Source of the DNA: a virus
Taxonomy: Duplodnaviria > Heunggongvirae > Uroviricota > Caudoviricetes
Direction: 5' to 3' (one strand)
DNA length: 11,969 bases
Virus record (IMG/VR): IMGVR_UViG_2734482785_000020
Span: 1-11,969 of that record
Both the position numbers and the translations under genes were made by a program. The notes below the pieces were generated by a model that worked only from the letters and a program-made list of their open reading frames with translations, was not told the DNA's origin and searched no databases. This document shows positions 1 to 11,969 of this stretch, piece after piece (positions within the stretch are counted from its first letter, which is position 1; each line of letters begins with the position of its first letter).

Positions 1-147
1 ATGACGCAAATTCCGTTAAAAACCCTGCTACTGTGTTTAACCGCAGTAGCGATAATCTGGATCCTCCACACATCACCTTGTGAGTTGCGATTCAGGTTTG
101 CAGGAACGGAAATTGCGGCATTCTTACAATGTAAGTCTACACAGTAA
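1..147 (+). CDS. hok: Hok/Gef-family type I toxin (small membrane peptide), 48 aa
   Basis: ATG at 1 to TAA at 145-147. Translation MTQIPLKTLLLCLTAVAIIWILHTSPCELRFRFAGTEIAAFLQCKSTQ has an N-terminal hydrophobic helix and the C-E-L-R-F-R ... E-I-A-A-F-L-x-C-K signature recalled from Hok family toxins. It is below the 60-aa cutoff of the ORF track. Any mok/sok partner would lie upstream, outside the window. Confidence 0.75.
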   Translation: MTQIPLKTLLLCLTAVAIIWILHTSPCELRFRFAGTEIAAFLQCKSTQ

Positions 148-155
148 GGAACCGC

Positions 156-179
156 GACGGGGAAGTCAACTTCCCCGTC
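156..179 (+). other. Stable stem-loop in the hok 3' region (10-bp GC-rich stem GACGGGGAAG / CTTCCCCGTC, 4-nt loop)
   Basis: Perfect inverted repeat read directly from the sequence, 9 nt after the hok stop. It has no U-tract, so it is more likely an mRNA-stabilising or fold-back element than a terminator. Confidence 0.5.
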
Positions 180-237
180 AATCGGTTGCCAGGGTAAAGG
201 CCGGAACGGCACCCTATCTGCAGTCATGAACATCACA

Positions 238-270
238 AACCCGCCGTGTAAAAGCTGCGGGTTTTCTTTT
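238..270 (+). terminator. Rho-independent terminator-like hairpin oriented for the + strand (hok transcript)
   Basis: Stem AACCCGC / GCGGGTT with a 12-nt loop, followed by TTTTCTTTT. It lies between the hok stop and the 3' end of the convergent ogr-like gene. Confidence 0.45.
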
Positions 271-281
271 GGCTGGTATCC

Positions 282-536
282 TCAGGCCTGTAGTAGTTCC
301 AGCGCCATTTGCTTTTCCTCCGGGCGCATTCGTTCGATCAACAGCTTCAACACGCCGTTCTCCAGTCCGCTGGGGGTCAGTGTGTGCGAGTAGGTCAGAT
401 TCATCACCCAGGTATGCCCGCACTCAAGACGCTTGCAACGATAATACACGTCAGCAAACCGATCATCTTTCCAGAAGGTCTTTTCAATCACTGCTTGCTC
501 ACCACAGCAAAAACACCGCGCTTTCTGTCTGCGCAC
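282..536 (-). CDS. ogr: Ogr/Delta-family zinc-finger late-gene transcriptional activator (84 aa, GTG start)
   Basis: Cys-x2-Cys ... Cys-x4-Cys arrangement (RCFCCGEQ ... YRCKRLECGHTWV) followed by an aromatic-rich segment, matching the P2 Ogr / P4 Delta fold as recalled. The start codon is GTG at 536-534 with a GGAGG Shine-Dalgarno 7 nt upstream; stop TGA at 282-284. Confidence 0.75.
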   Translation of the reverse strand: MRRQKARCFCCGEQAVIEKTFWKDDRFADVYYRCKRLECGHTWVMNLTYSHTLTPSGLENGVLKLLIERMRPEEKQMALELLQA

Positions 537-686
537 TCCGGCACCTCCTGAATAAACGCTGATTGCTTGACCTGATTTTACTCGTCATCACGGGGGGGGG
601 TAACAGTCATTTCATTCAGTATCACTGTGTTAATTTTGTGTTACTGGTCTAACCAGTGGTTTTTGGGCTCTGTCTCATAATCCGGT

Positions 687-992
687 GGGGGGTGCGCAAG
701 TGGGTCACAAAGGTCACAACAGTCAAAAACAATGCTTAATATCATGATTTAAAAAGGAAATATTTGTGACCTTTTCAAGGTCACAGAAGGTCACACGAGG
801 TCACAGCCTTCAAAAATACCTTAATTATCAATTTGTTATAATTTTAATGTGTGACCTTTAGTGACTTCTCCAAAAGGTTACATGTGACTTTGTTGTGACC
901 CATTTGTGACCTTTAAAATTTACAGCAATATATTGATATATAATATGTTTTTCTATTTGTGACTTTTGTGACCCACTTGCGCACCCCCCCCC
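687..992. repeat. Iteron array (about 13 copies of GGTCACA / TGTGACC) in dyad arrangement with an AT-rich centre, bounded by 32-bp inverted repeats; putative ori/crr-like replication region or recombinase site
   Basis: GGTCACA at 703, 712, 779, 789, 799; TGTGACC or TGTGACT at 765, 850, 883, 894, 905, 958, 967, plus a degenerate copy at 861; spacing 9-11 bp. Left arm 687-718 (GGGGGGTGCGCAAGTGGGTCACAAAGGTCACA) is the reverse complement of 958-992 with one mismatch. AT-rich segments at about 820-848 and 912-957. The array is non-coding and sits immediately 3' of the recombinase and alpha-like genes. Confidence 0.7.
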
Positions 993-1190
993 AAATTTTA
1001 GCGCGACCCCTTAAAATGTTAATTAAACTCACTTGCTCTGTCTCACTCTCGCTAACTCTCTGTGATTGAAATGTATATCGCTACTGTTTGACTCTTTCTG
1101 ATAATTCGGGTGCGAGAGCAAAAAAATTGATGACGGCCACCGCTGCAATATGACCGTCATCGCATTGCTGTTACCGTTGGTTCTGGCCAA

Positions 1191-1218
1191 CAAAAAAGGT
1201 CAGTGGAAAACCGACCTC
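1191..1218 (-). terminator. Weak candidate intrinsic terminator for the alpha-recombinase operon
   Basis: On the minus strand a short stem (AGGTC / GACCT, 11-nt loop) is followed by TTTTTT, about 30 nt downstream of the recombinase stop. The stem is short, so support is weak. Confidence 0.3.
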
Positions 1219-1246
1219 TTTTGCTGCGAATGTAGCGTTCTGTGGG

Positions 1247-2248
1247 TTACTCTGCTGGCTCTTTTTGTTCAGTGAATGCCATATTAGCTATCGGGTTAAA
1301 CCTTATGGCATCCGCCAGATAGTCGGGGGAAAAATGCGCATAAGTCATCGTTTGCTGGATAGTCGCATGTCCAAGAATCCGTTGTAATGTAACGATATTC
1401 CCACCGTTCATCATAAAGTGTGTGGCAAATGTATGACGCATGACATGCGTAGCCTGCCCCTTCGGTAAATCCGGCTTCACCTCCTGAAGGATCTCCCGGA
1501 ACTTCAGATAATCAACCTGATACAACAACCCCGTCCGGCGGGTCTTAATCAGCGGCACGACCGAATCAGCCACAGGAACCGAACGGGATTTTCCGTTTTT
1601 GGTGTTAAAGAACGTCACCCGGTTGCCAATGATGTGCTCTCCACGTAGTTCCGATGCTTCACTCCATCGGGCACCAGTAGAAAGACACAGAATGGCAACA
1701 CAACGCGCATCACCCTCCAGTCGCTCAAGAAGCCGCTCAATCTCATCATCAGAAAGAAAGGCCATCTCTGTATTCTGAATTTTTAGCTTGCGTATACTGC
1801 GCACAGGGTTCGGGTTGTGAAAGACTCCTGCTTCAATCAGCACCGTGAACATGGTAGACAGAACGCACAAGTCACGATTAATGCTGGATGGCATTAAGCC
1901 GGCCTGTAATTTCTCTGATCGATACTCAAGCATAAATTTTTGTGTCATCTGGCTGGCGCGCGGATCTCCCATTTCACGAATCACTTTCTCCAGCCGGATC
2001 CTATAGGTATCGCCGTAAGCCTGGTTACGGCCATCAAGCATCCACCACGTATCAAGCAACTCTGATAATCGCCGGCGATCTGCGGGTTTAGCCAGCCATG
2101 GGTTGTTATGGAAATTCTGTAAAATATGTTTTTCGAAGACCTCTGCACTCCCTTTCCTGACAAAAATTTTCCGTATCCGTTTGCCGTACGCCCCTTGGGG
2201 CCTGATATCGAGCATCCATCGCCCATCATCCATCTTTCTGATCGACAT
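1247..2248 (-). CDS. Tyrosine site-specific recombinase / integrase (333 aa, P2-Int-like size)
   Basis: C-terminal catalytic region HVMRHTFATHFMMNGGNIVTLQRILGHATIQQTMTYAHFSPDYL carries the conserved R, H-x-x-R and terminal Tyr of the phage-integrase fold. The ATG at 2248 lies 2 nt after the alpha-like stop (TAA 2251-2253), with a GGAGG-type Shine-Dalgarno embedded in the alpha 3' end, so the two are translationally coupled. Confidence 0.85.
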   Translation of the reverse strand: MSIRKMDDGRWMLDIRPQGAYGKRIRKIFVRKGSAEVFEKHILQNFHNNPWLAKPADRRRLSELLDTWWMLDGRNQAYGDTYRIRLEKVIREMGDPRASQMTQKFMLEYRSEKLQAGLMPSSINRDLCVLSTMFTVLIEAGVFHNPNPVRSIRKLKIQNTEMAFLSDDEIERLLERLEGDARCVAILCLSTGARWSEASELRGEHIIGNRVTFFNTKNGKSRSVPVADSVVPLIKTRRTGLLYQVDYLKFREILQEVKPDLPKGQATHVMRHTFATHFMMNGGNIVTLQRILGHATIQQTMTYAHFSPDYLADAIRFNPIANMAFTEQKEPAE

Positions 2249-2250
2249 AC

Positions 2251-4920
2251 TTAAGCCCCCTCCTTGTTACTAAATATCCAGCATTTCAGTGTATCCGGCT
2301 CTTTGCTTTCTGCTGCCCCTCTTCCGACATTTGCCTGCCTGGATACCTCGCTACGGACGGTTTTGTACTCAACCAGCGGTCGGGAACGCCCAGACCTGAG
2401 AAGCTCTAACATTTCCGGCTCAGTCCTGATCTCAACGCGGTGAATGGCGGCAGTCTGCCTCAGTTGCGGGATGCTGACGGCGAACCCCTTCCGGTATTCC
2501 TTGCCGAAGTGATTTACGCCGTATTTTGTTGTGCTGTCCAGGTAGTCGAATGCCTCCCAGAACGCTATGACCTCCGGTAAGTCATCCGTCACCGCTTCAG
2601 CCTGCGCTGCTGCCATTTCCTCCAGTTCCCGGCATGTGGCATCAAGCCATTCATCCGGGATATCAATAACGCATTTCAGCGCCCTGACCAGCGCGATAAG
2701 TTGTGCGTGATTTTTGGCGATGCGGGGATGGCGAATATTTTCGCAACCGCAAAGGCGGGTCGTTTCAGGCTCTGAGATCGCCAGAAACATTTCCATAATT
2801 GCCCGTTCGCGGCTGACCGCCCGATGAATAAAGCCTGATACTTCCTCAACGGGGTAGAGTTCCAGCCGTCTCGCCGCCAGTCGGGTATCAGGTGAATGGC
2901 GTTTTTTATCGGTATATATGCGAATCAGTCGCTCAATAATTGCCAGTGAGGCATTTACCCTGGCATTCTGTGCAATCACGATAGCACCCTTAAAATCCGG
3001 GTCGTAGGTGTTGTTATTGTTGGTCTTAACGCCACGAACGCCGATACCACCGCCGTTATAGAGGCTTTTCAGGTTGTCAAAGTCAAACGCGCCTTTTTTC
3101 TGCACCTTGTCCCCCCTGTCAGCCTCAATCAGCACAACGGGCAACCCGGCGACCTGTCCAAAAGTGCGCTTCCAGCCCGCTTCAGAGCCTTTCGTTGGAT
3201 CAACGCCTTCGTAGTTGTCACGACCGCACAGTCGCCAGCAAAAATCAATCAATGTTGATTTGCCCGTTCCGGGCTCTCCGGTGACTTCAAGGAAAGGGAA
3301 AGATTCTGCTTTATCCCGGATTTGCTCACTGAACAGCGAACCCAGCCAGAAAGCCAGGGTAATAATTCCCTTTTCACCAAAAGCCAGCCAGAGATCTTTC
3401 ACCCAGAATTCTGTGAATTCATCCGGTTTTTTATAGTTAATCTGTAATGTTGGTGTTTTACTTAATGGTTTTGCGTTTATGCCATCAATTTCAAAATAAT
3501 CCTCGTCATTGATTTCGTAGGTTTTACCATTACAAACCGCGACATCATTAAACAGCCACGCGCCAATCTCTTTGTTGTATCCGATAAAATCCTGACCAAT
3601 AACCTCTTTTATTGCGGGAAGGTCATTTTTTATTAATGCGTCAAGCTGCGTAGTCGTTCCGGTATAAATACCACCTTTTGCCACATGTAACAGGCGTTTC
3701 TTAAATTCAGATGCGGATGTTAATTGTCCTGATGTAAAAGTATTTTTCACTGTAGTACCATCCGGGAACGTTACACGGAAGTAATACCATGCTTCATCCG
3801 TGTCATTGTTTCGAATGTAATAAAGCGGCGCTGGGTTACAGTTTGCGATTTCTTTTACTGCACCGGATTCCTTAAGTGCAATTTTTCGCGCTTCATCTTC
3901 GTCAACATTTCGCTCATTAATGACACGCTCAACAGCCTTCATATGGCGCTCAATATCCAGCTTGAACCAGAAAACACGGTTATCAAAAGTAAAATGAAAT
4001 TCCTTTCGCTCACGAAAGGAAAACATTATTAGCGCCTTATCTCTTGGAGATTTCGCCAGCAATAAATCACCGTAATAGCGGTATCTTTTCACATCATGGC
4101 CATGCAGCCTTCCGGCGATGTGTAAATCATTCCAGTCGCGTTTATTGCTGTTTTTACCTGGTAATGCTGCCGCCGTTCTCCAGCCGTCTTCGGCGCTGCG
4201 TTCTGCATGTTTTTTCGCGTAACGCTCACCCGCACGCCCGTTATCCAGCGCCCACACGATAACCGGGCGTGGATTATCCCCGCACAGCTTCGCCAGTTCT
4301 TCCAGCGATTTATCAGGGTAGTTCACGGCAGACATGACAGAAACGGCCGCAATGCCATTCTGGTTAAGGCTGATGGCATCAAAGATACCCTCACAAATCC
4401 AGATTTCTTTGGCCTTGCTTAAATCCGCTCCCGGATAAGCCCACCACAGCCCCTTGTAACTGCCGGAAAAATTCGCCTTGCGAGCGAAGCGTTCCGGTCG
4501 GTCTATGATGCGCTCCCACCACACGCCGTCAGCCAGCGTAAAACGCACAGTAGCGGCCTGTTCGCCGCTTTCCTTGTCCTGGTATCGCTCCTGAGTAAAT
4601 GCCCCTTTCAGTGGCTCCACAGCAATATTGCGCGCCTCCTGAAGATAAGCTGCCGCTGCTGCACATGGGTCGTCTTTCGTGCTGATATAGCGATCTGACC
4701 ATGACGAAAACACATCCGGGTAAAGTTCTTTGGTCAGCAGGTCTGTACCGCATTTATTTTCGCGGCCACAGTGTACGATGTACGGCCTCTCAAGACTGGT
4801 AAACAGTTCCTTCTTTCCACATTGCGGACAAACACCATAGCGAAGATAGTTATTTTCTTCTTTAAAGTTGTAATCACGAATAAGACGGTTAATAATCTCT
4901 TTTCTGGTGTTATGTTTCAT
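2251..4920 (-). CDS. P4 alpha-like bifunctional DNA primase / SF3 helicase (about 889 aa)
   Basis: N-terminal zinc-binding motif (CPQCG ... HCGRENKCG), TOPRIM-like EGIFDAISLNQNG, Walker A VTGEPGTGKSTLIDF and a downstream VVLIEADRGD-type acidic motif, then a roughly 250-aa C-terminal extension, as in the iteron-binding domain of P4 alpha. Start placed at ATG 4920 (MKHNTRKEI); the ORF-track start at 4944 lies inside a hairpin and is less likely. Confidence 0.85.
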   Translation of the reverse strand: MKHNTRKEIINRLIRDYNFKEENNYLRYGVCPQCGKKELFTSLERPYIVHCGRENKCGTDLLTKELYPDVFSSWSDRYISTKDDPCAAAAAYLQEARNIAVEPLKGAFTQERYQDKESGEQAATVRFTLADGVWWERIIDRPERFARKANFSGSYKGLWWAYPGADLSKAKEIWICEGIFDAISLNQNGIAAVSVMSAVNYPDKSLEELAKLCGDNPRPVIVWALDNGRAGERYAKKHAERSAEDGWRTAAALPGKNSNKRDWNDLHIAGRLHGHDVKRYRYYGDLLLAKSPRDKALIMFSFRERKEFHFTFDNRVFWFKLDIERHMKAVERVINERNVDEDEARKIALKESGAVKEIANCNPAPLYYIRNNDTDEAWYYFRVTFPDGTTVKNTFTSGQLTSASEFKKRLLHVAKGGIYTGTTTQLDALIKNDLPAIKEVIGQDFIGYNKEIGAWLFNDVAVCNGKTYEINDEDYFEIDGINAKPLSKTPTLQINYKKPDEFTEFWVKDLWLAFGEKGIITLAFWLGSLFSEQIRDKAESFPFLEVTGEPGTGKSTLIDFCWRLCGRDNYEGVDPTKGSEAGWKRTFGQVAGLPVVLIEADRGDKVQKKGAFDFDNLKSLYNGGGIGVRGVKTNNNNTYDPDFKGAIVIAQNARVNASLAIIERLIRIYTDKKRHSPDTRLAARRLELYPVEEVSGFIHRAVSRERAIMEMFLAISEPETTRLCGCENIRHPRIAKNHAQLIALVRALKCVIDIPDEWLDATCRELEEMAAAQAEAVTDDLPEVIAFWEAFDYLDSTTKYGVNHFGKEYRKGFAVSIPQLRQTAAIHRVEIRTEPEMLELLRSGRSRPLVEYKTVRSEVSRQANVGRGAAESKEPDTLKCWIFSNKEGA

Positions 4921-4933
4921 ATATAAATCCCCC

Positions 4934-4963
4934 CCCCACTGCACCTTTTGCAGTGGGGTTTTT
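4934..4963 (+). terminator. Intrinsic-terminator-like hairpin oriented for the + strand, overlapping the alpha translation-initiation region
   Basis: 10-bp stem CCCCACTGCA / TGCAGTGGGG (4934-4943 and 4949-4958), 5-nt loop, then TTTTT (4959-4963); preceded by a C9 tract (4929-4937). On the minus-strand mRNA the same hairpin has no U-tract and partly sequesters the G-rich Shine-Dalgarno of alpha. Confidence 0.45.
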
Positions 4964-4964
4964 A

Positions 4965-5270
4965 TTAATTACTCGTTACTTCTTGTTTCCGGGCAATCCC
5001 TGCGGCTTCAGCCTGACGCCATGAAAAAATGCCGCCAGAAAGATGCATACCTGATTTTATTGATTGTAATTCCCGACTAATAATATTAGACAGAGATGTA
5101 ATATCTTTATTGGTAATTTCTGCACCCACTCCGCAGCTTCTTTCATCAAACATGATAGACATAAGGTTGATGAGATTAATTACATCTGTGAGATCTTCTT
5201 TTGCATCCTCTGTAAAAAAACCAACATATTCTTTATGTAAAAGATTTGCGTAATTCTGATTTTCAGACAT
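4965..5270 (-). CDS. Hypothetical protein (101 aa), AT-rich cargo-like ORF upstream of alpha
   Basis: Uninterrupted 101-codon ORF with GGGGAG about 5 nt upstream of the ATG. The composition is visibly more AT-rich than flanking genes. No recognisable motif. Confidence 0.55.
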   Translation of the reverse strand: MSENQNYANLLHKEYVGFFTEDAKEDLTDVINLINLMSIMFDERSCGVGAEITNKDITSLSNIISRELQSIKSGMHLSGGIFSWRQAEAAGIARKQEVTSN

Positions 5271-5337
5271 AAAAACTCCCCGACCCGTAAAGGTCGAAAT
5301 ATAAATTGAATTCAGTTATCAGTGGATAATTCGGGAA

Positions 5338-5556
5338 TCAGGCGGAAAGCTGCGTCACCTTTAACGCCTTAAAGTGAGTCATTCCCAGCTCTTCCAGCCC
5401 TTCGGCTGCGCGGCGTATGGCTTCGCCCGGTCCCGTTCCGTATACCGTTGCATGTGCATGTTTGGTTAACCCACGTTTATTAACGGCATAACCCAGCACA
5501 AAGAAACGTTTTTCACCGCTGCCATTATTTTTACGGGATGCTGAACGGGTTTTCAT
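5338..5556 (-). CDS. Hypothetical small protein (72 aa)
   Basis: ORF with an AAGGTG Shine-Dalgarno about 6 nt upstream; its ATG overlaps the stop of the upstream 62-aa ORF (ATGA overlap at 5553-5556), indicating translational coupling. Confidence 0.5.
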   Translation of the reverse strand: MKTRSASRKNNGSGEKRFFVLGYAVNKRGLTKHAHATVYGTGPGEAIRRAAEGLEELGMTHFKALKVTQLSA

Positions 5557-5741
5557 TTCTTCACCTTTACCACTGATGCTGTGAGTTCTTCTTCTGGTAA
5601 TTGATATTTCGGCGCAATTTCTTCCGTATACCTGATAGCGTCCCTTGCCGCTTTTCCTTTTGATTTATATTTATATGTGGTCCGGTAGTTTTCTTCCTCT
5701 CCTGTTACCACATTACGCAATTTAATATGAATCTCGTACAT
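5553..5741 (-). CDS. Hypothetical small basic protein (62 aa, MYEIHIKLRN...)
   Basis: Start chosen at ATG 5741 because of a GGAGGGG Shine-Dalgarno 7-8 nt upstream; the longer ORF-track version (to 5870) has no ribosome-binding site and overlaps the neighbouring ORF. Lys/Glu-rich. Confidence 0.45.
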   Translation of the reverse strand: MYEIHIKLRNVVTGEEENYRTTYKYKSKGKAARDAIRYTEEIAPKYQLPEEELTASVVKVKK

Positions 5742-5784
5742 CGTTACCCCTCCATCTCCAGAATGTTTACCGTGCATTTGTGGG

Positions 5785-5931
5785 TTAATTTCCCCGTTCA
5801 TTCGTGCGGCTGTACTCCATGCGGCTGGCAGCACGCAGGGCATCATCACAGGTCTGATATTCCCTGACATGAAAAAACTGACGAACGTCGCCGCTCTGGC
5901 AGTTAATCAGGGTGATAAGGAGCTTAAACAT
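5785..5931 (-). CDS. Hypothetical small protein (48 aa, MFKLLITLINCQSGD...)
   Basis: ATG at 5931 preceded by GGGAGG about 6 nt upstream; the start overlaps the stop of the upstream ORF. Short, so support is limited. Confidence 0.35.
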   Translation of the reverse strand: MFKLLITLINCQSGDVRQFFHVREYQTCDDALRAASRMEYSRTNERGN

Positions 5932-6445
5932 TGCACGCCTCCCGGATACGAATACGGGAAACAAAGACCAGACGGGATGCCGGAAGCAGGGCGCGTGCTT
6001 CGCGCTCACTGGCAGCGGTAACGGTATGAAGGCGAATATTTTTACCGTGGCACTGCATAAAGCGCCAGATAAAATCAGGGCGTGTTGATATAGCCATTTT
6101 GGCGGCTCCTCTTACTGATTTACGGAGTCTCGCCAGCACGCTGCTAAACATGGTGGCGGGACGTAACAGGGTTAGCAGACTGGCGTAAGAGAAACCAGCG
6201 AGCACAAAGGCTCCCCCATTACGCCCCGCCATAATACGGGGTAGGGTGGAATTACGGGCACAAAAAAACCGCATTACGGAAATATAGCGGCTACCCGCTC
6301 TTACAATCAGGCTGCTAAACCCGGCACCTGTTTTCTGAGGCGCGGGCAAACGATACGCCATGACAAAAAAGCGAGTCAAGCAATATTGCAAATTATTTTT
6401 GTGCAATTGCGCTGAGTGATTGATTTCTGTACGTAAAAAGTTCAT
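5924..6445 (-). CDS. Hypothetical protein (about 173 aa), Arg/Ala/Ser-rich
   Basis: Only long ORF in any frame across 5924-6451. ATG at 6445 with GGGA 6 nt upstream (an alternative ATG at 6451). The unusual composition leaves the frame and boundaries uncertain. Confidence 0.4.
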   Translation of the reverse strand: MNFLRTEINHSAQLHKNNLQYCLTRFFVMAYRLPAPQKTGAGFSSLIVRAGSRYISVMRFFCARNSTLPRIMAGRNGGAFVLAGFSYASLLTLLRPATMFSSVLARLRKSVRGAAKMAISTRPDFIWRFMQCHGKNIRLHTVTAASEREARALLPASRLVFVSRIRIREACNV

Positions 6446-6493
6446 AATCATTCCCGAACTGTAGATTCATAGATTTTTCCTTTTGTTGGTGAA

Positions 6494-6519
6494 CGGCCTG
6501 CATCCTGCGGGCCGTTTTT
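6494..6519 (+). terminator. Terminator-like hairpin oriented for the + strand between the capsid-like gene and the small-ORF chain
   Basis: Stem CGGCCTGCA / TGCGGGCCG (one mismatch, 3-nt loop) followed by TTTTT at 6515-6519. On the minus strand it is preceded by an A-tract rather than followed by a U-tract. Confidence 0.35.
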
Positions 6520-6531
6520 CTTATCCAGCTA

Positions 6532-7584
6532 TCACGAATTAAACGTAATCACCCCTTCATCCACCGCCGCATAAAGGTTCACATTCGCCAGTCCATAGCC
6601 CTGATGACGCCATGCCCGCATGTTCAGACGTTTGGTGTCTTCGTTCATGTCGAACTCTGTACGGTAAGAGCCTTCAATGATGTTAATCAGCAGGTTCGAA
6701 AGTGTGGTCACAGCCAGGCGTCCACCCGGCATAAACGGCGGCACAAAGGCAAAATGCCCGGCAATGGTGCTTCCCCATGCGCTGGCGGCTTCGGTGTCTC
6801 CTGCGCCGTTTGCGGTGCTGAAAAGACGCAGACGTTCAGCAGCTGCAAGTTCTGATCCCACCATCACCACAAGGCGCGGATCGTTCTGCCATTGTGCGGG
6901 AATTTTCGTTCTAATCAGATGCTGCGCCAGTGCATCCACCCCCGGAAAATCACCGCCTGCGCCCAGCGTGATGGCATCGCTGATAATCTGTCGCCCTTCG
7001 CTGGTCTTCCTGGCAATTTCATGCCAGCCGGGCGCAACATCCTCGCCGTTCGGGTTGATGTTCGGTGCGGTGAAGGTTGCCGCTGACGTGCCGTTAAAGC
7101 CAATCCGCAGATCATCCAGGTAAATTTTACTGGTCAGATAGCCACACAAAATCCCCAGCAGTGCATCGCGGTTTTTATCGTCATTCACTGCATTGGCCAT
7201 CACAACCAGGTTAATCCAGTCGAGATATTCACATGAGTCCATCTCATAGCATTCAACCGGAGAGCCTTTAATATCCATGGCACGGCTAAAGCGTCCTTCC
7301 TCGGCGCGTCCGGTGGATAAGCGCGCATCCCCAATAAGGTTAATAGCGGACTGATGCGGATTAACTGACAGATATTTTATTTGCCCGGAAAGCCAGTTAG
7401 AGGGGGAAATAAAATGCACAAACGGATTTTTTTGCGTGTATGCGCTGATACGTGCGTAAAGCTCTCTTTCTGCAAGCACGGTATTAATGGCGCTTTCGTT
7501 TTCGTTCATCGCCGGAGATGAAATATTGATACTTTCAAGCACGCTTTCGGCTTTATCTTTCAGTTCATTAATATTAAAAAACAT
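6532..7584 (-). CDS. P2 gpN-family major capsid protein homolog (about 350 aa)
   Basis: Alignment by eye with the recalled P2 gpN sequence: GFNG...V.GW, G.GGD...DAL and DP.LVV.VG..L.A blocks (ours LRIGFNGTS ... VAPGW ... LGAGGDFPGVDALA ... QNDPRLVVMVGSELAA) in the same order and spacing. Start placed at ATG 7584 (MFFNINELKDK) with an AGGGGA Shine-Dalgarno; the ORF-track start at 7656 would overlap the upstream gene by about 60 nt. Confidence 0.65.
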   Translation of the reverse strand: MFFNINELKDKAESVLESINISSPAMNENESAINTVLAERELYARISAYTQKNPFVHFISPSNWLSGQIKYLSVNPHQSAINLIGDARLSTGRAEEGRFSRAMDIKGSPVECYEMDSCEYLDWINLVVMANAVNDDKNRDALLGILCGYLTSKIYLDDLRIGFNGTSAATFTAPNINPNGEDVAPGWHEIARKTSEGRQIISDAITLGAGGDFPGVDALAQHLIRTKIPAQWQNDPRLVVMVGSELAAAERLRLFSTANGAGDTEAASAWGSTIAGHFAFVPPFMPGGRLAVTTLSNLLINIIEGSYRTEFDMNEDTKRLNMRAWRHQGYGLANVNLYAAVDEGVITFNS

Positions 7585-7594
7585 ACATTTCCCC

Positions 7595-8470
7595 TTAAAT
7601 AATATCTTTCTTTTCGGTATGTACAGACAGCAAAGCGGTCGCCGCATCCCGTTCAATTCGTGGCATACTTATTCTGGTATATTCCTGTAACGTCATCGCG
7701 TGGCGAATGGATTCGCTGCCGTTGCTGTAATAATGCTTCGTCAGAGTGCGTAACGCATCATTAATATATTCCTGCCGCAAATGGTTGTATTTAGCCATTA
7801 CTGAATAAGGAATGAATTTGATTTCCTCATTGCGTAAAGTGACGATCGCACTGACTGCCGAAATAATCTCCTTATAAAGATTGATACGGCGATTTGTTTC
7901 CGCCTCCAGTCCGTCAAGCGAAGCGGAAAAAATCCACGCATTATCGCCATCATGAGAAAGATTTTTCCCTGTATTAATAAGGCGTATAGCTTGCTCACAG
8001 GTGGCGCGCGTCTTGCCGCAATTTCGTTTCTCATTTTCAAGCAGATGCGTTTCATGCTCGATAACGTCTTTTACTGAATACCGATCACCATAAGGGTTAT
8101 CAGCACCAGTGGGCTGTAACGGAGTGTTACGCAATTCGCTGATTTTATTTTCCTGAGCAGTCACTTTGTTTTCTGCTTCGCGGATTTTTTGCTGAATTCG
8201 CGCAATGGCAATATCGCAATCTTCCGCAATATCCCGCATTTCTTCATCACTGATTTCATGCACTAATGGCAGGCAATACCCTGTGATATCGCGATATTCC
8301 TCGGCGTGTCTGTGCATGTATTTTGATGCAATGATATCTATCAGGCGAATAACCAGAGAGACTTCAGATTGTCCCTTTTGATATACAAAACTACGGGACC
8401 ACGATGCAATCGTGGTCATTTCCGGGCAGTTTTTAAAAACGGGTGTTAATATCGTGATTGTGTTTTCCAT
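7595..8470 (-). CDS. Hypothetical protein (291 aa), unknown function, with a predicted helical central segment
   Basis: Long ORF with GGAG upstream; stop 10 nt before the capsid-like start. The central segment (IARIQQKIREAENKVTAQENKISELRN) looks coiled-coil-like. No catalytic motif recognised. Confidence 0.6.
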   Translation of the reverse strand: MENTITILTPVFKNCPEMTTIASWSRSFVYQKGQSEVSLVIRLIDIIASKYMHRHAEEYRDITGYCLPLVHEISDEEMRDIAEDCDIAIARIQQKIREAENKVTAQENKISELRNTPLQPTGADNPYGDRYSVKDVIEHETHLLENEKRNCGKTRATCEQAIRLINTGKNLSHDGDNAWIFSASLDGLEAETNRRINLYKEIISAVSAIVTLRNEEIKFIPYSVMAKYNHLRQEYINDALRTLTKHYYSNGSESIRHAMTLQEYTRISMPRIERDAATALLSVHTEKKDII

Positions 8471-8475
8471 AAATG

Positions 8476-8787
8476 TTACTCCGGTAAATCAGTGTCTCTC
8501 TTTTTCTTTTTAGCGTGTTCATGCGGGTTATTTGCTTCGGCAATAGTTGGCGGATTGCGCAACCACCATAAAACATCACTTAACAACCAGGTGCATGAAC
8601 AGCGCCCCAAAGAATGACGGGGAGGAAAAGCGCCGATTTTCTCCAGTTCCCAACGCCGGGAGCGTGAAAGCGTTGTCATCTTTTTACACTTCTCTTCCCT
8701 GATGCGTTCTTCGCAGTCAAAACCATACTCGGCGAGTATGGTGCGACGCTGTTCTGGAGTTGGTGGAATGAATGCGGATTGAGTCAT
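8476..8787 (-). CDS. AlpA-like helix-turn-helix regulator with an N-terminal extension (103 aa)
   Basis: C-terminal half (MTTLSRSRRWELEKIGAFPPRHSLGRCSCTWLLSDVLWWL) fits the AlpA/Xis-type HTH pattern (S.S.....E..G.FP....LG.....W...EV..W). GGGAG Shine-Dalgarno 7 nt upstream of ATG 8787. The roughly 36-aa N-terminal extension is unexplained. Confidence 0.6.
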   Translation of the reverse strand: MTQSAFIPPTPEQRRTILAEYGFDCEERIREEKCKKMTTLSRSRRWELEKIGAFPPRHSLGRCSCTWLLSDVLWWLRNPPTIAEANNPHEHAKKKKRDTDLPE

Positions 8788-8860
8788 GTTTTTCTCCCGT
8801 GCTCTGAACTTTTCGGGGGTTATTTTTCACAAACCGCTCCAATCAGCTCAAGGAGAAGAG

Positions 8861-8894
8861 GGCTAAATTAGCCTACCGGAAGGCTAATTTAGCG
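8861..8894. promoter_or_regulatory. Tandem palindromic operator-like sites (GGCTAAATTAGCC, 8 bp, GGCTAATTTAGCG) upstream of the alpA-like gene
   Basis: Two 13-bp near-palindromes centred 21 bp apart (two helical turns); together they form a 12-bp perfect inverted repeat. They lie in the 121-bp gap between the cargo ORF stop and the alpA-like start and are followed on the + strand by a T-rich run. Confidence 0.45.
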
Positions 8895-8908
8895 TTTAGA
8901 GAATAATT

Positions 8909-9964
8909 TTATCTTTTTAACCAATTGGTTATAGTGTCCTTCGAAATAGTAAATTTCTTTCCATTTTTTTCTGCAATCGCCTCTAGTGCTGTCGCTATCT
9001 TGGTTGGTTGGTCTTTCACGTCACTGAGATACTCACCTATAAGTAAAGCCAAAACATCCCGCATACGGCCAGATACGCGTTCTGACTTAGGTTTTGAGTG
9101 TGTTAATTTGTTGTCTTGGGATGTTGATTTGCTATCAGTCTCTGGAAGGGGGCCAAATGCGGAGGCTCTCCATTTATGAAGATTAGACATAATATAGGAG
9201 CTGTATTTCTTTGTCATTACACCATCACTACCCTCATTATTAATAACACTTTTAATAGTTAAAAAATCTGACTTTGACAGATACAAATCATCAATATCAA
9301 ACTTAATTTCTTTATCAGTTAACAGGCTTACGCTGAAATTACTATCAGGCGCATATATTCTATTGTCTTCACCTGGTTGAATTAACGGGCGAAATTTCCA
9401 TACACTGAAGAAAAAATCGGCATCTAATCCAAAAAAACCATGAACACTAGCATAGTATTTTAAATTTGGTGTAGAGGCATCTATTCCATATCGTGCTAAA
9501 CTTTCTAATTCTCTTTTAAGTGAGTCAGGAAATAATAAAACACTATTCACCACGCAAAAATCATCGCTCACACATAAATTAGTTTTGTAAGTAAAACTTT
9601 GATAAAAATCCCTTACATCCAGATTATCTATTGCAGATATTCCACCTGAACGCCTTTCTATTATATCAACAATGCGCCCGGCAATCTCGCTAAAGTTATT
9701 AAATGACTCATCAAGCCCTAAAAAGACCTCTTTTTCTGACTCATTCAATTCTTGTAAATCGTTAACAAAATCAATTAATTTATCATGCCAGACAAAATTA
9801 TCAGCACAAAATGGTTCAACATAGCAATAACCATCTTCAATCAATATATATAACCTTATATTCCCAGTCATAGCCCAATGAATAAAATCATCAACTGTAC
9901 AACCTAACAACTCCGCAGCCCTTGTTATTGGGTAAAACTCTCTTAGCGGTAATGCCATATTCAT
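8909..9964 (-). CDS. Hypothetical cargo protein (about 351 aa) with N- and C-terminal helix-turn-helix-like segments; AT-rich
   Basis: A 357-codon ORF open from TTG 9982; first ATGs at 9964 and 9958. N-terminus YPITRAAELLGCTVDDFIHWAMTGNI and C-terminus KIATALEAIAEKNGKKFTISKDTITNWLKR both resemble HTH motifs; the middle roughly 200 aa has no recognised motif. The composition is far more AT-rich than the integrase and the backbone, and the gene starts about 15 nt after the integrase stop. Confidence 0.65.
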   Translation of the reverse strand: MNMALPLREFYPITRAAELLGCTVDDFIHWAMTGNIRLYILIEDGYCYVEPFCADNFVWHDKLIDFVNDLQELNESEKEVFLGLDESFNNFSEIAGRIVDIIERRSGGISAIDNLDVRDFYQSFTYKTNLCVSDDFCVVNSVLLFPDSLKRELESLARYGIDASTPNLKYYASVHGFFGLDADFFFSVWKFRPLIQPGEDNRIYAPDSNFSVSLLTDKEIKFDIDDLYLSKSDFLTIKSVINNEGSDGVMTKKYSSYIMSNLHKWRASAFGPLPETDSKSTSQDNKLTHSKPKSERVSGRMRDVLALLIGEYLSDVKDQPTKIATALEAIAEKNGKKFTISKDTITNWLKR

Positions 9965-9978
9965 TCTCGCAAATAAAA

Positions 9979-11181
9979 TCAATCTCTTTTATTCAGTTTT
10001 TCCAGATATTCAAACCAGTCATTTAACGCTTGTAATTTAAAAGGAATATACTGGCTAAGGTTATAGTTAAATTCTGCCGAGCCAGCATTATAAACGTGCC
10101 CTAATAATGACTCGACAATATGAGGCATCACCCCCATATTATTTAGCCCCGTTGAAAATGTTCGTCTTAAATCGTGTAGCGTCCATTTCTCATTATGGCC
10201 AAACATTTTATACATTCGACGACCTTTCAGGGATACGGCTGTGTGTGTTCGTTCTTCCCCTAAAAGCAATCCTGTATCTCCTGTTTTTCCCTTTAAATCT
10301 TTTAACCAACCTCTTATAGCTACAGGTATTGGGCGAACAATTTTTTTACTGTTTTTGCTATTCCCCCGTGGAACTGTCCATTCCCATGAAATGAAATCCC
10401 ACTCACTCCAACGGGAGCGGCGCAACTCTGCCGTTCTGGCACCAAATAAAATCAATAGTTTTATTAGTCGAGAAAAATAAATATCTCCGCGCTCTTCTTT
10501 TCCAAAACGCCAAAGATCTGCTAATTCCCTGTCACTCAACACTCGATCGCGTTGCCCGGCAGCTTCGCCCACATCGCTTAAAGTTAAGTGGGCAAGCGCA
10601 TCGCAAACGGCATAATGCCGAACATTACAGAACCTCAATGCCTGTTTTGCGTGTTGAAACATTCTTCCGGCTGTTTTGGGGCTGATTGCACGTATTTCGT
10701 CAAAGCAGTTAACCCAATACCGCGTATCGCACCGTGATAACGGAAAACTCCCAATTCTGGGGTAAATATGTTTGCACAATTGCGCCCGTATCAGATCTTC
10801 ATCTTTGCGTTTGTGCCTTGCATAGTTAACAAGCCAGTACTCCAGCGCATCCCGAACAGTAACAGGGGTGCGGGTTTCTTCGGTAAAAAGCTGAATCTCA
10901 ATTTTGGGGTTAAGTCCGTTAGCCAACCAGTGGCGGCAGCGTTCCCGCCATTTACGGGCATCTTTCAAACTCATATCAGGATAACGCCCCAACGTTACCC
11001 GATTAAGAGTGCTATCACGCCCACCGAGCCGATATGAAAAAACCCAGCTCACATGCCCTCTTGTGGACAATCTAACCCCCAGCCCTTCACCATCAGCAAT
11101 CATCTCAACATGCTTTCTGGTTGTGCCTGTCAGGGCTTTTAGTTTCCTGTCACTCAGCTTATTAGTTCCAGACACCTTCAT
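9979..11181 (-). CDS. P4-type tyrosine integrase (about 400 aa)
   Basis: N-terminal arm-binding-type domain (GLGVRLSTRGHVSWVFSYRLGGRDSTLNRVTLGRYPDMSLKDARKWRE) and C-terminal catalytic core (LHDLRRTFSTGLNNMGVMPHIVESLLGHV...). Start at ATG 11181 (MKVSGTNK) with GGAG upstream; the ORF-track extension to 11271 has no ribosome-binding site. Confidence 0.85.
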   Translation of the reverse strand: MKVSGTNKLSDRKLKALTGTTRKHVEMIADGEGLGVRLSTRGHVSWVFSYRLGGRDSTLNRVTLGRYPDMSLKDARKWRERCRHWLANGLNPKIEIQLFTEETRTPVTVRDALEYWLVNYARHKRKDEDLIRAQLCKHIYPRIGSFPLSRCDTRYWVNCFDEIRAISPKTAGRMFQHAKQALRFCNVRHYAVCDALAHLTLSDVGEAAGQRDRVLSDRELADLWRFGKEERGDIYFSRLIKLLILFGARTAELRRSRWSEWDFISWEWTVPRGNSKNSKKIVRPIPVAIRGWLKDLKGKTGDTGLLLGEERTHTAVSLKGRRMYKMFGHNEKWTLHDLRRTFSTGLNNMGVMPHIVESLLGHVYNAGSAEFNYNLSQYIPFKLQALNDWFEYLEKLNKRD

Positions 11182-11188
11182 AACTCCA

Positions 11189-11214
11189 ATGTGTATACAC
11201 GTATTGATACACAT
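11189..11214. promoter_or_regulatory. Palindromic element (ATGTGTAT-N10-ATACACAT, containing the perfect palindrome GTGTATACAC) abutting the integrase ribosome-binding site
   Basis: Read directly from the sequence; it sits 8-33 nt upstream of the integrase start codon. Candidate operator or RNA structure controlling integrase expression. Confidence 0.35.
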
Positions 11215-11355
11215 AACATGGTAATACTCAGAAAAACTGAAGTCACCCAAGAACAGAAAATGCTGTAACACAATGGAATTAAATAATTTTTTATACGGAA
11301 CGTGAAAAAGTCAGAAAGGGAGAGAACAAGAAAAACATTACTTCTTGCGTTATTT

Positions 11356-11383
11356 TCGGCACCTTTTATGTAGCGAAGGTGCC
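11356..11383. other. 9-bp inverted repeat CGGCACCTT / AAGGTGCCG with a 10-nt loop in the integrase-upstream intergenic region
   Basis: Perfect inverted repeat in AT-rich intergenic DNA, followed on the + strand by a T-rich stretch. Could be a terminator, an att-associated site or a regulator-binding site. Confidence 0.3.
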
Positions 11384-11670
11384 GGAATATATTCTCTTTT
11401 GTTACTTATTTCTATACCGTGCACAATATTTTTATCCCTCATATTTATAGGGTAAATTACCTGTAAAGTAGTGTCTAATTACCCGCCTCGCAAACTCCAG
11501 TTTTCAAATATCTATTTCAGGTCAAAAGATTGAATTATTCACTGGAGACGATTCGTAAATTCGCTGGATTTTTGACTAAAGTTTCTTTAGGATTTGTCTC
11601 ATCGTATGATTAATTACACCAATCGTTCAACGTCTTGCTGATAAGTGATGGCGATTATATGAGGTTAGCA

Positions 11671-11799
11671 ATGCCTTCTGGAAATCAGGAACCCCGCCGC
11701 GATCCTGAATTAAAACGTAAAGCCTGGCTGGCGGTTTTTCTTGGTTCTGCACTTTTCTGGGTGGTTGTCGCACTGCTGATTTGGAAAGTGTGGGGATAA
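11671..11799 (+). CDS. Small single-pass membrane protein (42 aa)
   Basis: ATG 11671 with GAGG about 7 nt upstream. Translation MPSGNQEPRRDPELKRKAWLAVFLGSALFWVVVALLIWKVWG has a charged N-terminus and one hydrophobic helix. Stop TAA 11797-11799. Confidence 0.5.
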   Translation: MPSGNQEPRRDPELKRKAWLAVFLGSALFWVVVALLIWKVWG

Positions 11800-11801
11800 C
11801 T

Positions 11802-11969
11802 ATGGTCGGTCAGGAGCAACTGGAGTCGTCACCATTATGCCAGCATAGTGACAATGAAACAGAAACGAAACGGGAATGTTCCGTCGTTATTCCAGACGAC
11901 TGGCAACTAACATCGCAGCAGCAAGCCTTTATAGAACTGTTTGCTGAAGATGATCAGCCGAAACAATAA
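11802..11969 (+). CDS. Small acidic protein (55 aa)
   Basis: ATG 11802 lies 2 nt after the upstream stop, with GGGGA 6 nt upstream. Translation MVGQEQLESSPLCQHSDNETETKRECSVVIPDDWQLTSQQQAFIELFAEDDQPKQ; stop TAA at 11967-11969, the window end. Confidence 0.45.
   Translation: MVGQEQLESSPLCQHSDNETETKRECSVVIPDDWQLTSQQQAFIELFAEDDQPKQ

Follow-up and report, generated by a model that had tools for sequence, protein, structure and literature searches.

Long G/C runs in a satellite island of Escherichia coli lie in three separate, putative control elements and vary in length among relatives

The window analysed here, the whole 11,969 nt of DNA at positions 1–11,969 of the IMG/VR virus record IMGVR_UViG_2734482785_000020 (Caudoviricetes), holds at positions 1–11300 a genomic island of the P2-dependent satellite type. 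Four runs of G or C within this island are the subject of this report. On the plus strand, T1 is a G9 at 592–600 (C9 on the coding strand of an ogr/delta-like gene), T2 is a G6 at 687–692, T3 is a C9 at 984–992 (G9 on the minus strand) and T4 is a C9 at 4929–4937, which reads as G9 on the minus strand, the mRNA strand of a primase gene. All four were found exactly where the first-pass annotation had placed them. T1 lies upstream of the gene for an Ogr/Delta-like zinc-finger protein of 84 aa (282–536, minus strand; Pfam PF04606, E = 6e-11; phrog_603; annotated homologues). T2 lies within the left arm, and T3 at the outer end of the right arm, of an inverted repeat that bounds an iteron region at about 700–975. 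T4 precedes the gene for a Toprim primase-helicase, an 'alpha'-like Pri-Rep of 889 aa (2251–4920, minus strand, ATG at 4920; Pfam Toprim_2; full-length phrog_1139), and between that gene and the iterons lies the gene for a Xer-like tyrosine recombinase of 333 aa (1247–2248, minus strand).

T1, T3 and T4 are the only G/C runs longer than 6 nt in the window, and such runs are far beyond chance. A first-order Markov model of the window predicts 0.042 runs of at least 9 nt per window where three are observed. As a composition control we used 822 kb of gammaproteobacterial DNA, made up of 80 loci around homologues of the internal recombinase from many genera, and found 76 runs of at least 6 nt, 13 of at least 7 nt and none of at least 8 nt. 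The earlier remark that runs of nine are rare is borne out. In the E. coli chromosome, 12 kb on the flanks of a related island contain no G/C run of at least 6 nt, and the longest run in phage P4 is 6 nt. Downstream of distant recombinase homologues (40-odd loci scanned) we found no comparable inverted repeat, and a run of at least 8 nt occurred in none of the 80 distant recombinase loci, so that the feature is confined to the E. coli clade; in an E. albertii locus with an 88% identical recombinase, the downstream region is unrelated. An artefact of dG/dC-tailing during cloning is excluded by the presence of identical tracts in dozens of independent genomes, and a G-quadruplex built from the tracts was rejected because the runs are too widely spaced on one strand.

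Related islands are chromosomal in about 49–70 of 5426 complete E. coli genomes and occupy several insertion sites (between hpt and gcd, beside a lacY-like/PfkB locus, and beside topA). We compared about 45 related sequences. Their sources were IMG/VR, metagenomes, complete genomes of E. coli and 10 assemblies with an identical recombinase, one of which, from SRR2239630, equals the window at 100% over 7.2 kb.

The iteron array (703–973) comprises 10 exact copies of GGTCACA in both orientations, together with degenerate copies, around AT-rich cores. The heptamer occurs 11 times in the whole window against 1 expected, with no second cluster, and short repeats arranged in two sets around AT-rich DNA are the layout of an iteron-type origin. 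Relatives fall into three iteron classes (GGTCACA, CGGTTACA and RGGTTACA), and the class tracks divergence in the last roughly 190 aa of the primase, which are there 67–82% identical to those of the window; the N-terminal 600 aa are 94–99% identical across the classes. We read the array as the replication origin cognate to the primase-helicase. It does not lie immediately 3′ of the initiator gene, the 1-kb recombinase gene and a 250-nt conserved block being interposed. The core of the origin and the initiator's DNA-binding end (window 2251–2820) seem to have been swapped as a pair, with the recombinase gene between them. When origin-region DNA was searched in phage and plasmid collections, no match was returned.

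The origin is bounded by a 41-nt inverted repeat whose arms are 90% complementary. On the plus strand the left arm (679–719) reads AATCCGGT-GGGGGG-TGCGCAA followed by the outermost iteron pair, and the right arm (957–997) an iteron pair followed by TTGCGCA-CCCCCCCCC-AAATT. When left arms were aligned with the reverse complement of right arms, the two were in register in 15 elements, and both arms showed the same order. A −10-like hexamer comes first, CATAAT or CAAAAT in the left arm and TAAAAT or TAAAGT in the right; a stretch of 11 nt that includes the G run follows, and then TGCGCAA and an iteron pair. The parts of the arms outside the iterons, which include the T2 and T3 boxes, are kept in all three iteron classes, and in one clade TGCGCAA has become TGCGGAA in both arms. 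An inverted repeat that adjoins a tyrosine recombinase gene and whose arms evolve in concert might be taken for an invertible switch, the 41-nt repeats serving as sites at which the Xer-like recombinase (1247–2248) flips the 237-bp core. The core is, however, full of iterons whose sequence covaries with the primase, no such repeat lies downstream of distant recombinase homologues, and the orientation of the core relative to its flanks is the same in 20 of 20 aligned non-redundant relatives as well as in the 10 closest. We rejected this reading, which is extremely improbable.

The first-pass annotation had pictured complementary runs flanking the iterons and clamping the region between them. 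This part of the picture fits T2 and T3: folded as single-stranded DNA, 670–1005 forms a long stem that includes the G6:C9 pairing (z = −11.5). What stabilizes the fold is the 41-nt repeat as a whole together with the inverted iterons; the runs are not the source of its stability, and T1 does not belong to the fold. The G9 at 592–600 lies about 80 nt outside the repeat, and its 10-nt complementarity to the C9 at 984–992 is a trivial match of a G run to a C run with no extended partner. A single clamp system did not survive the comparison; there are three separate elements, with the G6 and C9 ending a larger repeat and the G9 belonging to the region upstream of the ogr/delta-like gene. The fold is one of the points for a broader alternative, in which the tracts are contingency loci whose reversible, high-rate slippage tunes primase translation and origin structure while the paired runs clamp the single-stranded origin. 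We consider this alternative unlikely. The source of the pairing potential and the position of T1 already count against it, and the evidence on tract length, given below, divides.

T2 reads G6, G5A or AG5 in the relatives and never changes in total length. T3 has at least 7 C in 30 of 31 readable relatives, which span the three iteron classes, and ranges from 5 to 11. The distance from the iteron to the anchor beyond T3, in 31 sequences, is 23 nt in 20, 22 nt in 5, 24 nt in 4, and 21 and 25 nt in one each. Much of the range of T3 is due to substitution at the edge of the run with total length equal (TTGCGCAA-C8 and TTGCGC-C11, T-C8 and C9, C7TC and C9). Among the ten closest relatives (96–100% identity), the spacing at T2 and T3 is fixed, and T3 is C9 or C7TC at identical spacing. 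Both the constancy of T2 and the edge substitutions of T3 at kept spacing argue for constraint, not for free phase variation, and the fixed length of T2, the strongly modal spacing of T3 and the uniformity of the closest relatives speak against contingency loci in particular. The same conservation is awkward for a further alternative, that the tracts are neutral by-products, G-rich functional elements (a Shine-Dalgarno, a stem, the repeat ends) having drifted through a mutation bias that extends G runs, the homopolymer state serving no purpose in itself, and most of the short-range differences being assembly errors. We regard this as doubtful: a run of at least 7 C at T3 in all but one of the readable relatives, across classes about 20% diverged in the surrounding DNA, is hard to fit to a mutable run under no constraint. 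The interrupted versions in relatives are nevertheless what drift would leave (TGGAG or GGGGGAGGGA at T4, C7TC or TCTTC5 at T3, and G5A or AG5 at T2).

On the right side the repeat is joined to a predicted sigma-70-like promoter (995–1022, minus strand) that points into the origin. Its hexamers, TTAACA-16 nt-TAAAAT, match the consensus at 10 of 12 positions in a promoter scan, and their spacing and conservation are those expected of a sigma-70 promoter. The −35 TTAACA and the −10 TAAART are invariant in all relatives, the spacer positions vary, and the constancy of the hexamers extends to L114, a relative retrieved independently of the search pattern. The −10 ends 2 nt ahead of the G run of T3; since transcription would begin about 7 nt downstream of the −10, the predicted start lies at about 988, inside the run. 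A minus-strand hairpin with a T run at about 1198–1222, which reads as terminator-like, lies after the primase-recombinase operon and upstream of the promoter. The left-arm hexamer CATAAT was also considered as a promoter and rejected, a −35 at 16–18 nt being absent in every class. Within the array, two inverted iterons at 765–785 form on the minus strand a 9-bp hairpin with a U-rich tail that appeared terminator-like in the scan. A transcript from the predicted promoter could end there after about 230 nt; the U-rich tail is not conserved in the other iteron classes.

A promoter in this position, with conserved hexamers directly before a homopolymer, raises the possibility that T3 acts through transcription. 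Reiterative initiation is established for promoters with homopolymers at or just after the start (PMC8812562), and a separate start is plausible here because the operon seems to end at the hairpin at about 1198–1222. RNA polymerase starting from the 1022–995 promoter might stutter, or its G-rich RNA might stay hybridized to the C-run template as an R-loop at the edge of the origin. The left arm, however, has the same arrangement of hexamer and run without a −35, and we judge stutter or R-loop control quite improbable. The same holds for its extension, in which origin opening or primase-helicase loading would be coupled to transcription at a level set by tract length: a primase-helicase replicon has no obvious need for an RNA primer or an R-loop, and the region matches no known RNA family. 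The only match in an RNA-family scan of the window was a C4 RNA at 6149–6236, with none at the tracts.

T4 sits 8 nt upstream of the primase ATG, in the ribosome-binding region of the 'alpha' gene as the first-pass annotation had it. On the mRNA strand the leader reads AAAAACCCCACUGCA-AAAGG-UGCAGUGGGG-GGGGG-AUUUAUAU-AUG, and the run is split: the first four G are paired in a hairpin and the other five occupy the Shine-Dalgarno position. The hairpin (4934–4958; 10 bp, −20.1 kcal/mol, z = −3.2) is conserved and lies between orf101 and the primase gene, 6 nt after the orf101 stop. In plus-strand orientation it has the form of a canonical intrinsic terminator, a 10-bp stem with TTTTTATTAA behind it; in the primase-coding orientation GGGGGAUUUAUAU comes after the stem, which does not read as a terminator. 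No gene is annotated on the plus strand here, which runs antisense to the genes for the primase and the recombinase. In seven relatives the T4 site is GGGG-TGGAG, read as GGGGTGGAG-TTTTATATATG, and in the STEC316/306–308 lineage it is GGGGGAGGGA; other relatives have G7, G8, G9 or G10. A third group has a different hairpin at the place of T4 (C5–9 UGUAUUUUUACA G7–9 plus TGTA/TACA), followed by AGAGG. These leaders all keep a hairpin and, 8 nt from the AUG, a purine-rich Shine-Dalgarno, the pure homopolymer being one state among several. Because extra G are added on the hairpin side, the distance from Shine-Dalgarno to AUG is constant at 8 nt, and lengthening of T4 alters only the number of unpaired G, from 3 to 6. 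That the length of T4 leaves this spacing unaltered is a point against contingency loci.

T1 lies outside the origin repeat. Seen from the ogr/delta-like gene it is a C9 on the coding strand, and 11 nt separate its end from a downstream TAAAAT (580–575, minus strand), which we read as a −10 hexamer and which lies about 35 nt before GGAGG and the GTG start at 536. The segment CTGATTTTAC is kept in every relative that possesses T1. The best −35-like hexamer, TTACCC (3/6), would stand at a spacing of 17 nt with C9 and of 16 nt with C8. From this geometry we infer a promoter for the ogr/delta-like gene with T1 in its spacer/−35 zone. Relatives with identical flanks carry G7 (n = 1), G8 (n = 11) or G9 (n = 3), and a second flank type carries G8 or G12; as the flanks are equal, these differences in length are true indels. 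T1 was found only in the subfamily in which the ogr/delta-like gene abuts the origin. The P2/P4 late-promoter activator site TGT-N12-ACA is absent upstream of the gene. A conserved short hairpin (ACTGGT-CTA-ACCAGT, window 642–665) followed by a plus-strand T run lies just left of the left arm of the origin and is kept in all subfamilies, with varying stem sequence. A plus-strand small RNA running from the G9 at 592–600 to this hairpin was rejected, as an acceptable promoter was not found.

Tract lengths thus differ between related elements, as the comparison proposed in the first-pass annotation was to establish, and the invariance that would have refuted its reading is not what we see: T1 is G7, G8, G9 or G12, T4 is C7–10, and only T2 is invariant in total length. 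In the ten closest relatives T1 is G8 or G9 and T4 is C8 or C9. The description of the runs as slipped-strand mispairing sites accordingly finds partial support, in T1, T3 and T4, which are polymorphic and exceed the roughly 7 nt needed for slippage, and falls short for T2, whose total length is fixed and whose G6 is borderline. In near-clonal comparisons, almost all differences in 8–10 kb were indels of 1–3 nt in these runs. ETEC1732 and ETEC1734 differ at 3 positions in 9.6 kb, each a 1-nt indel in a C run (T3, the leader run and a C6 in the primase gene). A single difference separates mip270_05 from mip270_22 (T4, C10 and C9) and OkiPb01677 from OkiPb01692 (the leader hairpin, G7 and G8). 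ETEC1748, 4069, 4071 and 4079 differ by 1 SNP and have T3 as their only indel site (C11, C9, C8 and C9), two IMG/VR copies 2 SNPs apart have 1 indel, at T3, and STEC306, 307 and 308 are identical. The length polymorphism of T1, T3 and T4, together with the placement of 8 of 9 near-clonal indels in the tracts or the hairpin partner against 1 SNP in the same comparisons, speaks for contingency loci, which have recently been reported in coliphages (bioRxiv 10.1101/2025.10.21.683753). The tracts are non-coding, however, so that they could not work as a frameshift on/off switch, and sequencing error is a possible source of the length differences.

The neutral alternative draws on some of the same data. 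The C6/C5 difference in the primase gene (at L107 6987, in ETEC1734) frameshifts the gene, which is annotated as a pseudogene; such a frameshift is typical of homopolymer miscalls, and the identity of the three STEC isolates fits as well. Whether the frameshift reflects a true inactivation or a miscall affects the trust that can be placed in the other clonal differences. The pattern of variation fits slippage around a preferred length and fits long-read homopolymer miscalls too, as would be expected of both. Length differences occur also among assemblies derived from short reads, which argues that at least part of the variation is real. Nor are variable runs confined to the four tracts: the family has further G/C runs of variable length at other places between genes (C5 and C10; G5–G8 near window 1105–1113; C4–C6; G5–G9), a recurrence that neutral drift has difficulty with given that the 822-kb control has no run of at least 8 nt. 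One of these sites is a fifth variable G run (window 1099–1126; L114 1092–1099), which lies after GATAAT-CA and before A6–8, is G5–G8 in relatives and is interrupted in the window (TTCGGGTGCGAGAGC). In a subfamily with a different left flank, a C5 in L101, L085, L087, L089 and L090 is a C10 in L088 (4167–4176), a genome with otherwise 16 SNPs in 5.6 kb.

Runs also seem to have grown at constant total length. At T3, G8-TTG became G11 by T to G changes directly 3′ of the G run, and in the second arm of the leader hairpin GGGGT became GGGGG; the step between GGGG-TGGAG and G9 at T4 needs a T to G 3′ of the run and one A to G. Changes of GnT to Gn+1 have been described as a mutational hotspot (Horton et al. 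2025, PMC12344412), and run-length changes at constant spacing that are substitutions of this type are a point for the neutral alternative. The G6-T of the left arm is never converted in the relatives, which suggests selection on that T.

Building on the observed positions, conservation, covariation and length polymorphism of the tracts, we favour an account that we think has about an even chance of being right: three G-rich control elements, unrelated to one another, have each turned into a homopolymer by drift and now change by slippage of a few nucleotides, probably with quantitative effects. T4 would be the last four G of the conserved hairpin after orf101 joined to a G-only Shine-Dalgarno. 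T2 and T3 would be G-rich boxes that close off, on the outside, the 41-nt repeat around the iteron origin, and on the right the conserved −35 would complete a sigma-70 promoter, such that transcription into the origin starts within the G run. T1 would be the spacer/−35 zone of the weak promoter predicted for the ogr/delta-like activator. Substitutions that extend G runs (GnT to Gn+1 and the like) may have fused adjoining G-rich elements, and runs that have reached at least 8 nt would then slip by ±1–3 nt. That the promoters are active, where transcription starts and what slippage would do to expression or replication are inferences from sequence. Slippage would change the number of unpaired G open to the ribosome at the primase gene, the −35/−10 geometry at the ogr/delta-like gene, and the promoter-origin distance and 5′ G content at the origin. 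The tracts would on this account be mutable dials about a preferred length and not on/off switches.

Several points weigh against the account of drifted control elements. The clonal length differences could be long-read homopolymer errors, of which the C6 frameshift in the primase gene is a warning sign. T3 runs from C8 to C11 in the otherwise identical DNA of the ETEC1748 lineage, a poor fit to a strict constraint on spacing. The promoter scan gave no call at the T1 site, where the −35 is weak (3/6). The left arm has a −10-like hexamer at equal distance without a −35, and the right-hand promoter could in part be a by-product of the symmetry of the repeat. Finally, the account leaves unexplained why G/C runs, rather than any GC-rich sequence, have been retained at the ends of the origin.

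A stronger form of the idea is a long shot in our view. The runs would be selected, heritable dials of the satellite life cycle, and their slippage would make subpopulations of lysogens in which the satellite answers a helper phage differently, a form of bet-hedging by means of non-coding tracts. The T3 run at the promoter start would then set origin firing through polymerase stutter or an R-loop at the origin edge, and late-gene activation and the supply of initiator would be set by the runs in the activator promoter and in the primase Shine-Dalgarno. If tract length does set primase translation, activator transcription or origin firing, this rare family of satellites would carry mutable dials of its response to the helper, and the biology of contingency loci would extend from the coding regions of phages to control regions of satellites that encode no protein. 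Should the tracts have no effect, they are an ordinary curiosity of sequence composition. In either case, indels between clonal isolates of this island fall mainly in the runs, which matters for typing based on SNPs and indels, and the alignments show in nature how G runs can grow by substitution at their edges while the spacing stays constant. Contigs that end at the origin repeats (three drafts) matter for such typing too. The iteron/inverted-repeat region of the island breaks short-read assemblies: the draft contigs L123, L124 and L125, with an identical recombinase, stop in or beside the origin, 20–125 nt left of the right anchor.

The block between the origin-directed promoter and the recombinase stop (window 1023–1246, about 220 nt) is highly conserved in all iteron classes. 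In most relatives it contains the dyad TGCAAT-N9-ATTGCA (TGCAATATGGCCACCATTGCA), represented in the window by TGCAATATGACCGTCATCGCA at about 1146–1166, which is a candidate multimer-resolution recombination site of the 333-aa recombinase. The rest of the island shows the order integrase, AlpA, pri-rep and origin of a phage-inducible chromosomal island (PICI), mixed with P2/P4-type modules (a C4/CI antisense RNA, an Icd-like ORF, the Ogr/Delta-like gene and a P2-family capsid homologue). All of the following genes but the last are on the minus strand: an integrase of 430 aa (9979–11271), an AlpA-type regulator (8476–8787), a P2-family major-capsid homologue of 374 aa (6532–7656), an Icd-like protein (5924–6451) that overlaps the C4/CI-type antisense RNA (6149–6236; RF01695, 74 bits), and a Hok/Gef gene on the plus strand (1–147). 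Small ORFs are also present in the window besides these named genes.

P4 was considered as a direct precedent and rejected. The island has no nucleotide similarity to P4 and lacks the P4 cos sequence, P4 has no long G/C run, and the relation to P4 alpha is marginal (best BLASTP segment 27 aa, E = 2e-4). The nearest phage homologue of the primase is a Peduoviridae primase with 52% identity, and P4 was not among the 15 best of 41 phage matches. 'Alpha' is therefore best taken as a functional label only, for what appears to be an analogue of P4 alpha. In organization the two replicons resemble each other. Both have a multidomain Toprim primase-helicase whose C-terminal part apparently sets iteron specificity, 7–8-bp iterons in both orientations, a C4/CI-type immunity RNA and a Delta-like activator. 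The island differs in having one iteron cluster instead of ori plus crr, and in its iterons (GGTCACA, against TGTTCACC in P4). As far as passages of Fillol-Salom et al. (2018, PMC6092414) describe Gram-negative PICIs with a pri-rep-ori module of the EcCICFT073 type, these share with the island an integrase, AlpA and a primase-type initiator, and an origin 3′ of the initiator gene with two iteron sets flanking AT-rich DNA. Measured against those passages, the island is set apart by the Xer-like recombinase gene between initiator and origin, by the 41-nt inverted repeat with G/C-run ends that bounds the origin, and by its P2/P4-type modules (C4/CI RNA, Ogr/Delta, Icd-like and the P2-family capsid homologue); a G/C-run feature was not found in them.

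Homopolymeric phase variation in promoter spacers and upstream regions is known from the poly-C of Bordetella fim and the poly-G/C of Neisseria porA and opc. T1 resembles these tracts in being a long C run before a −10-like hexamer with true indels (7, 8, 9 and 12), but its promoter is predicted and its carrier is a mobile satellite, not a surface-antigen gene. The tract differences share with the GnT hotspots of PMC12344412 the change of T to G 3′ of a G run at constant total length; that work concerns mutation bias, not function, and the G6-T of the island's left arm has stayed unconverted. The T3 promoter is like the cases of reiterative initiation in that its predicted start lies within a homopolymeric run. 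In those cases the starts have been mapped by experiment and the runs are 3 to about 8 nt long (PMC8812562), whereas the start at T3 is predicted and the run is also part of an origin repeat. In the literature searched we found neither the combination of these features in a rare E. coli satellite family nor conserved G/C runs ending an origin repeat. Each component is nonetheless of a known kind: homopolymers that slip, a G-rich Shine-Dalgarno, an origin with iterons in dyad arrangement, and a promoter with a homopolymeric start.

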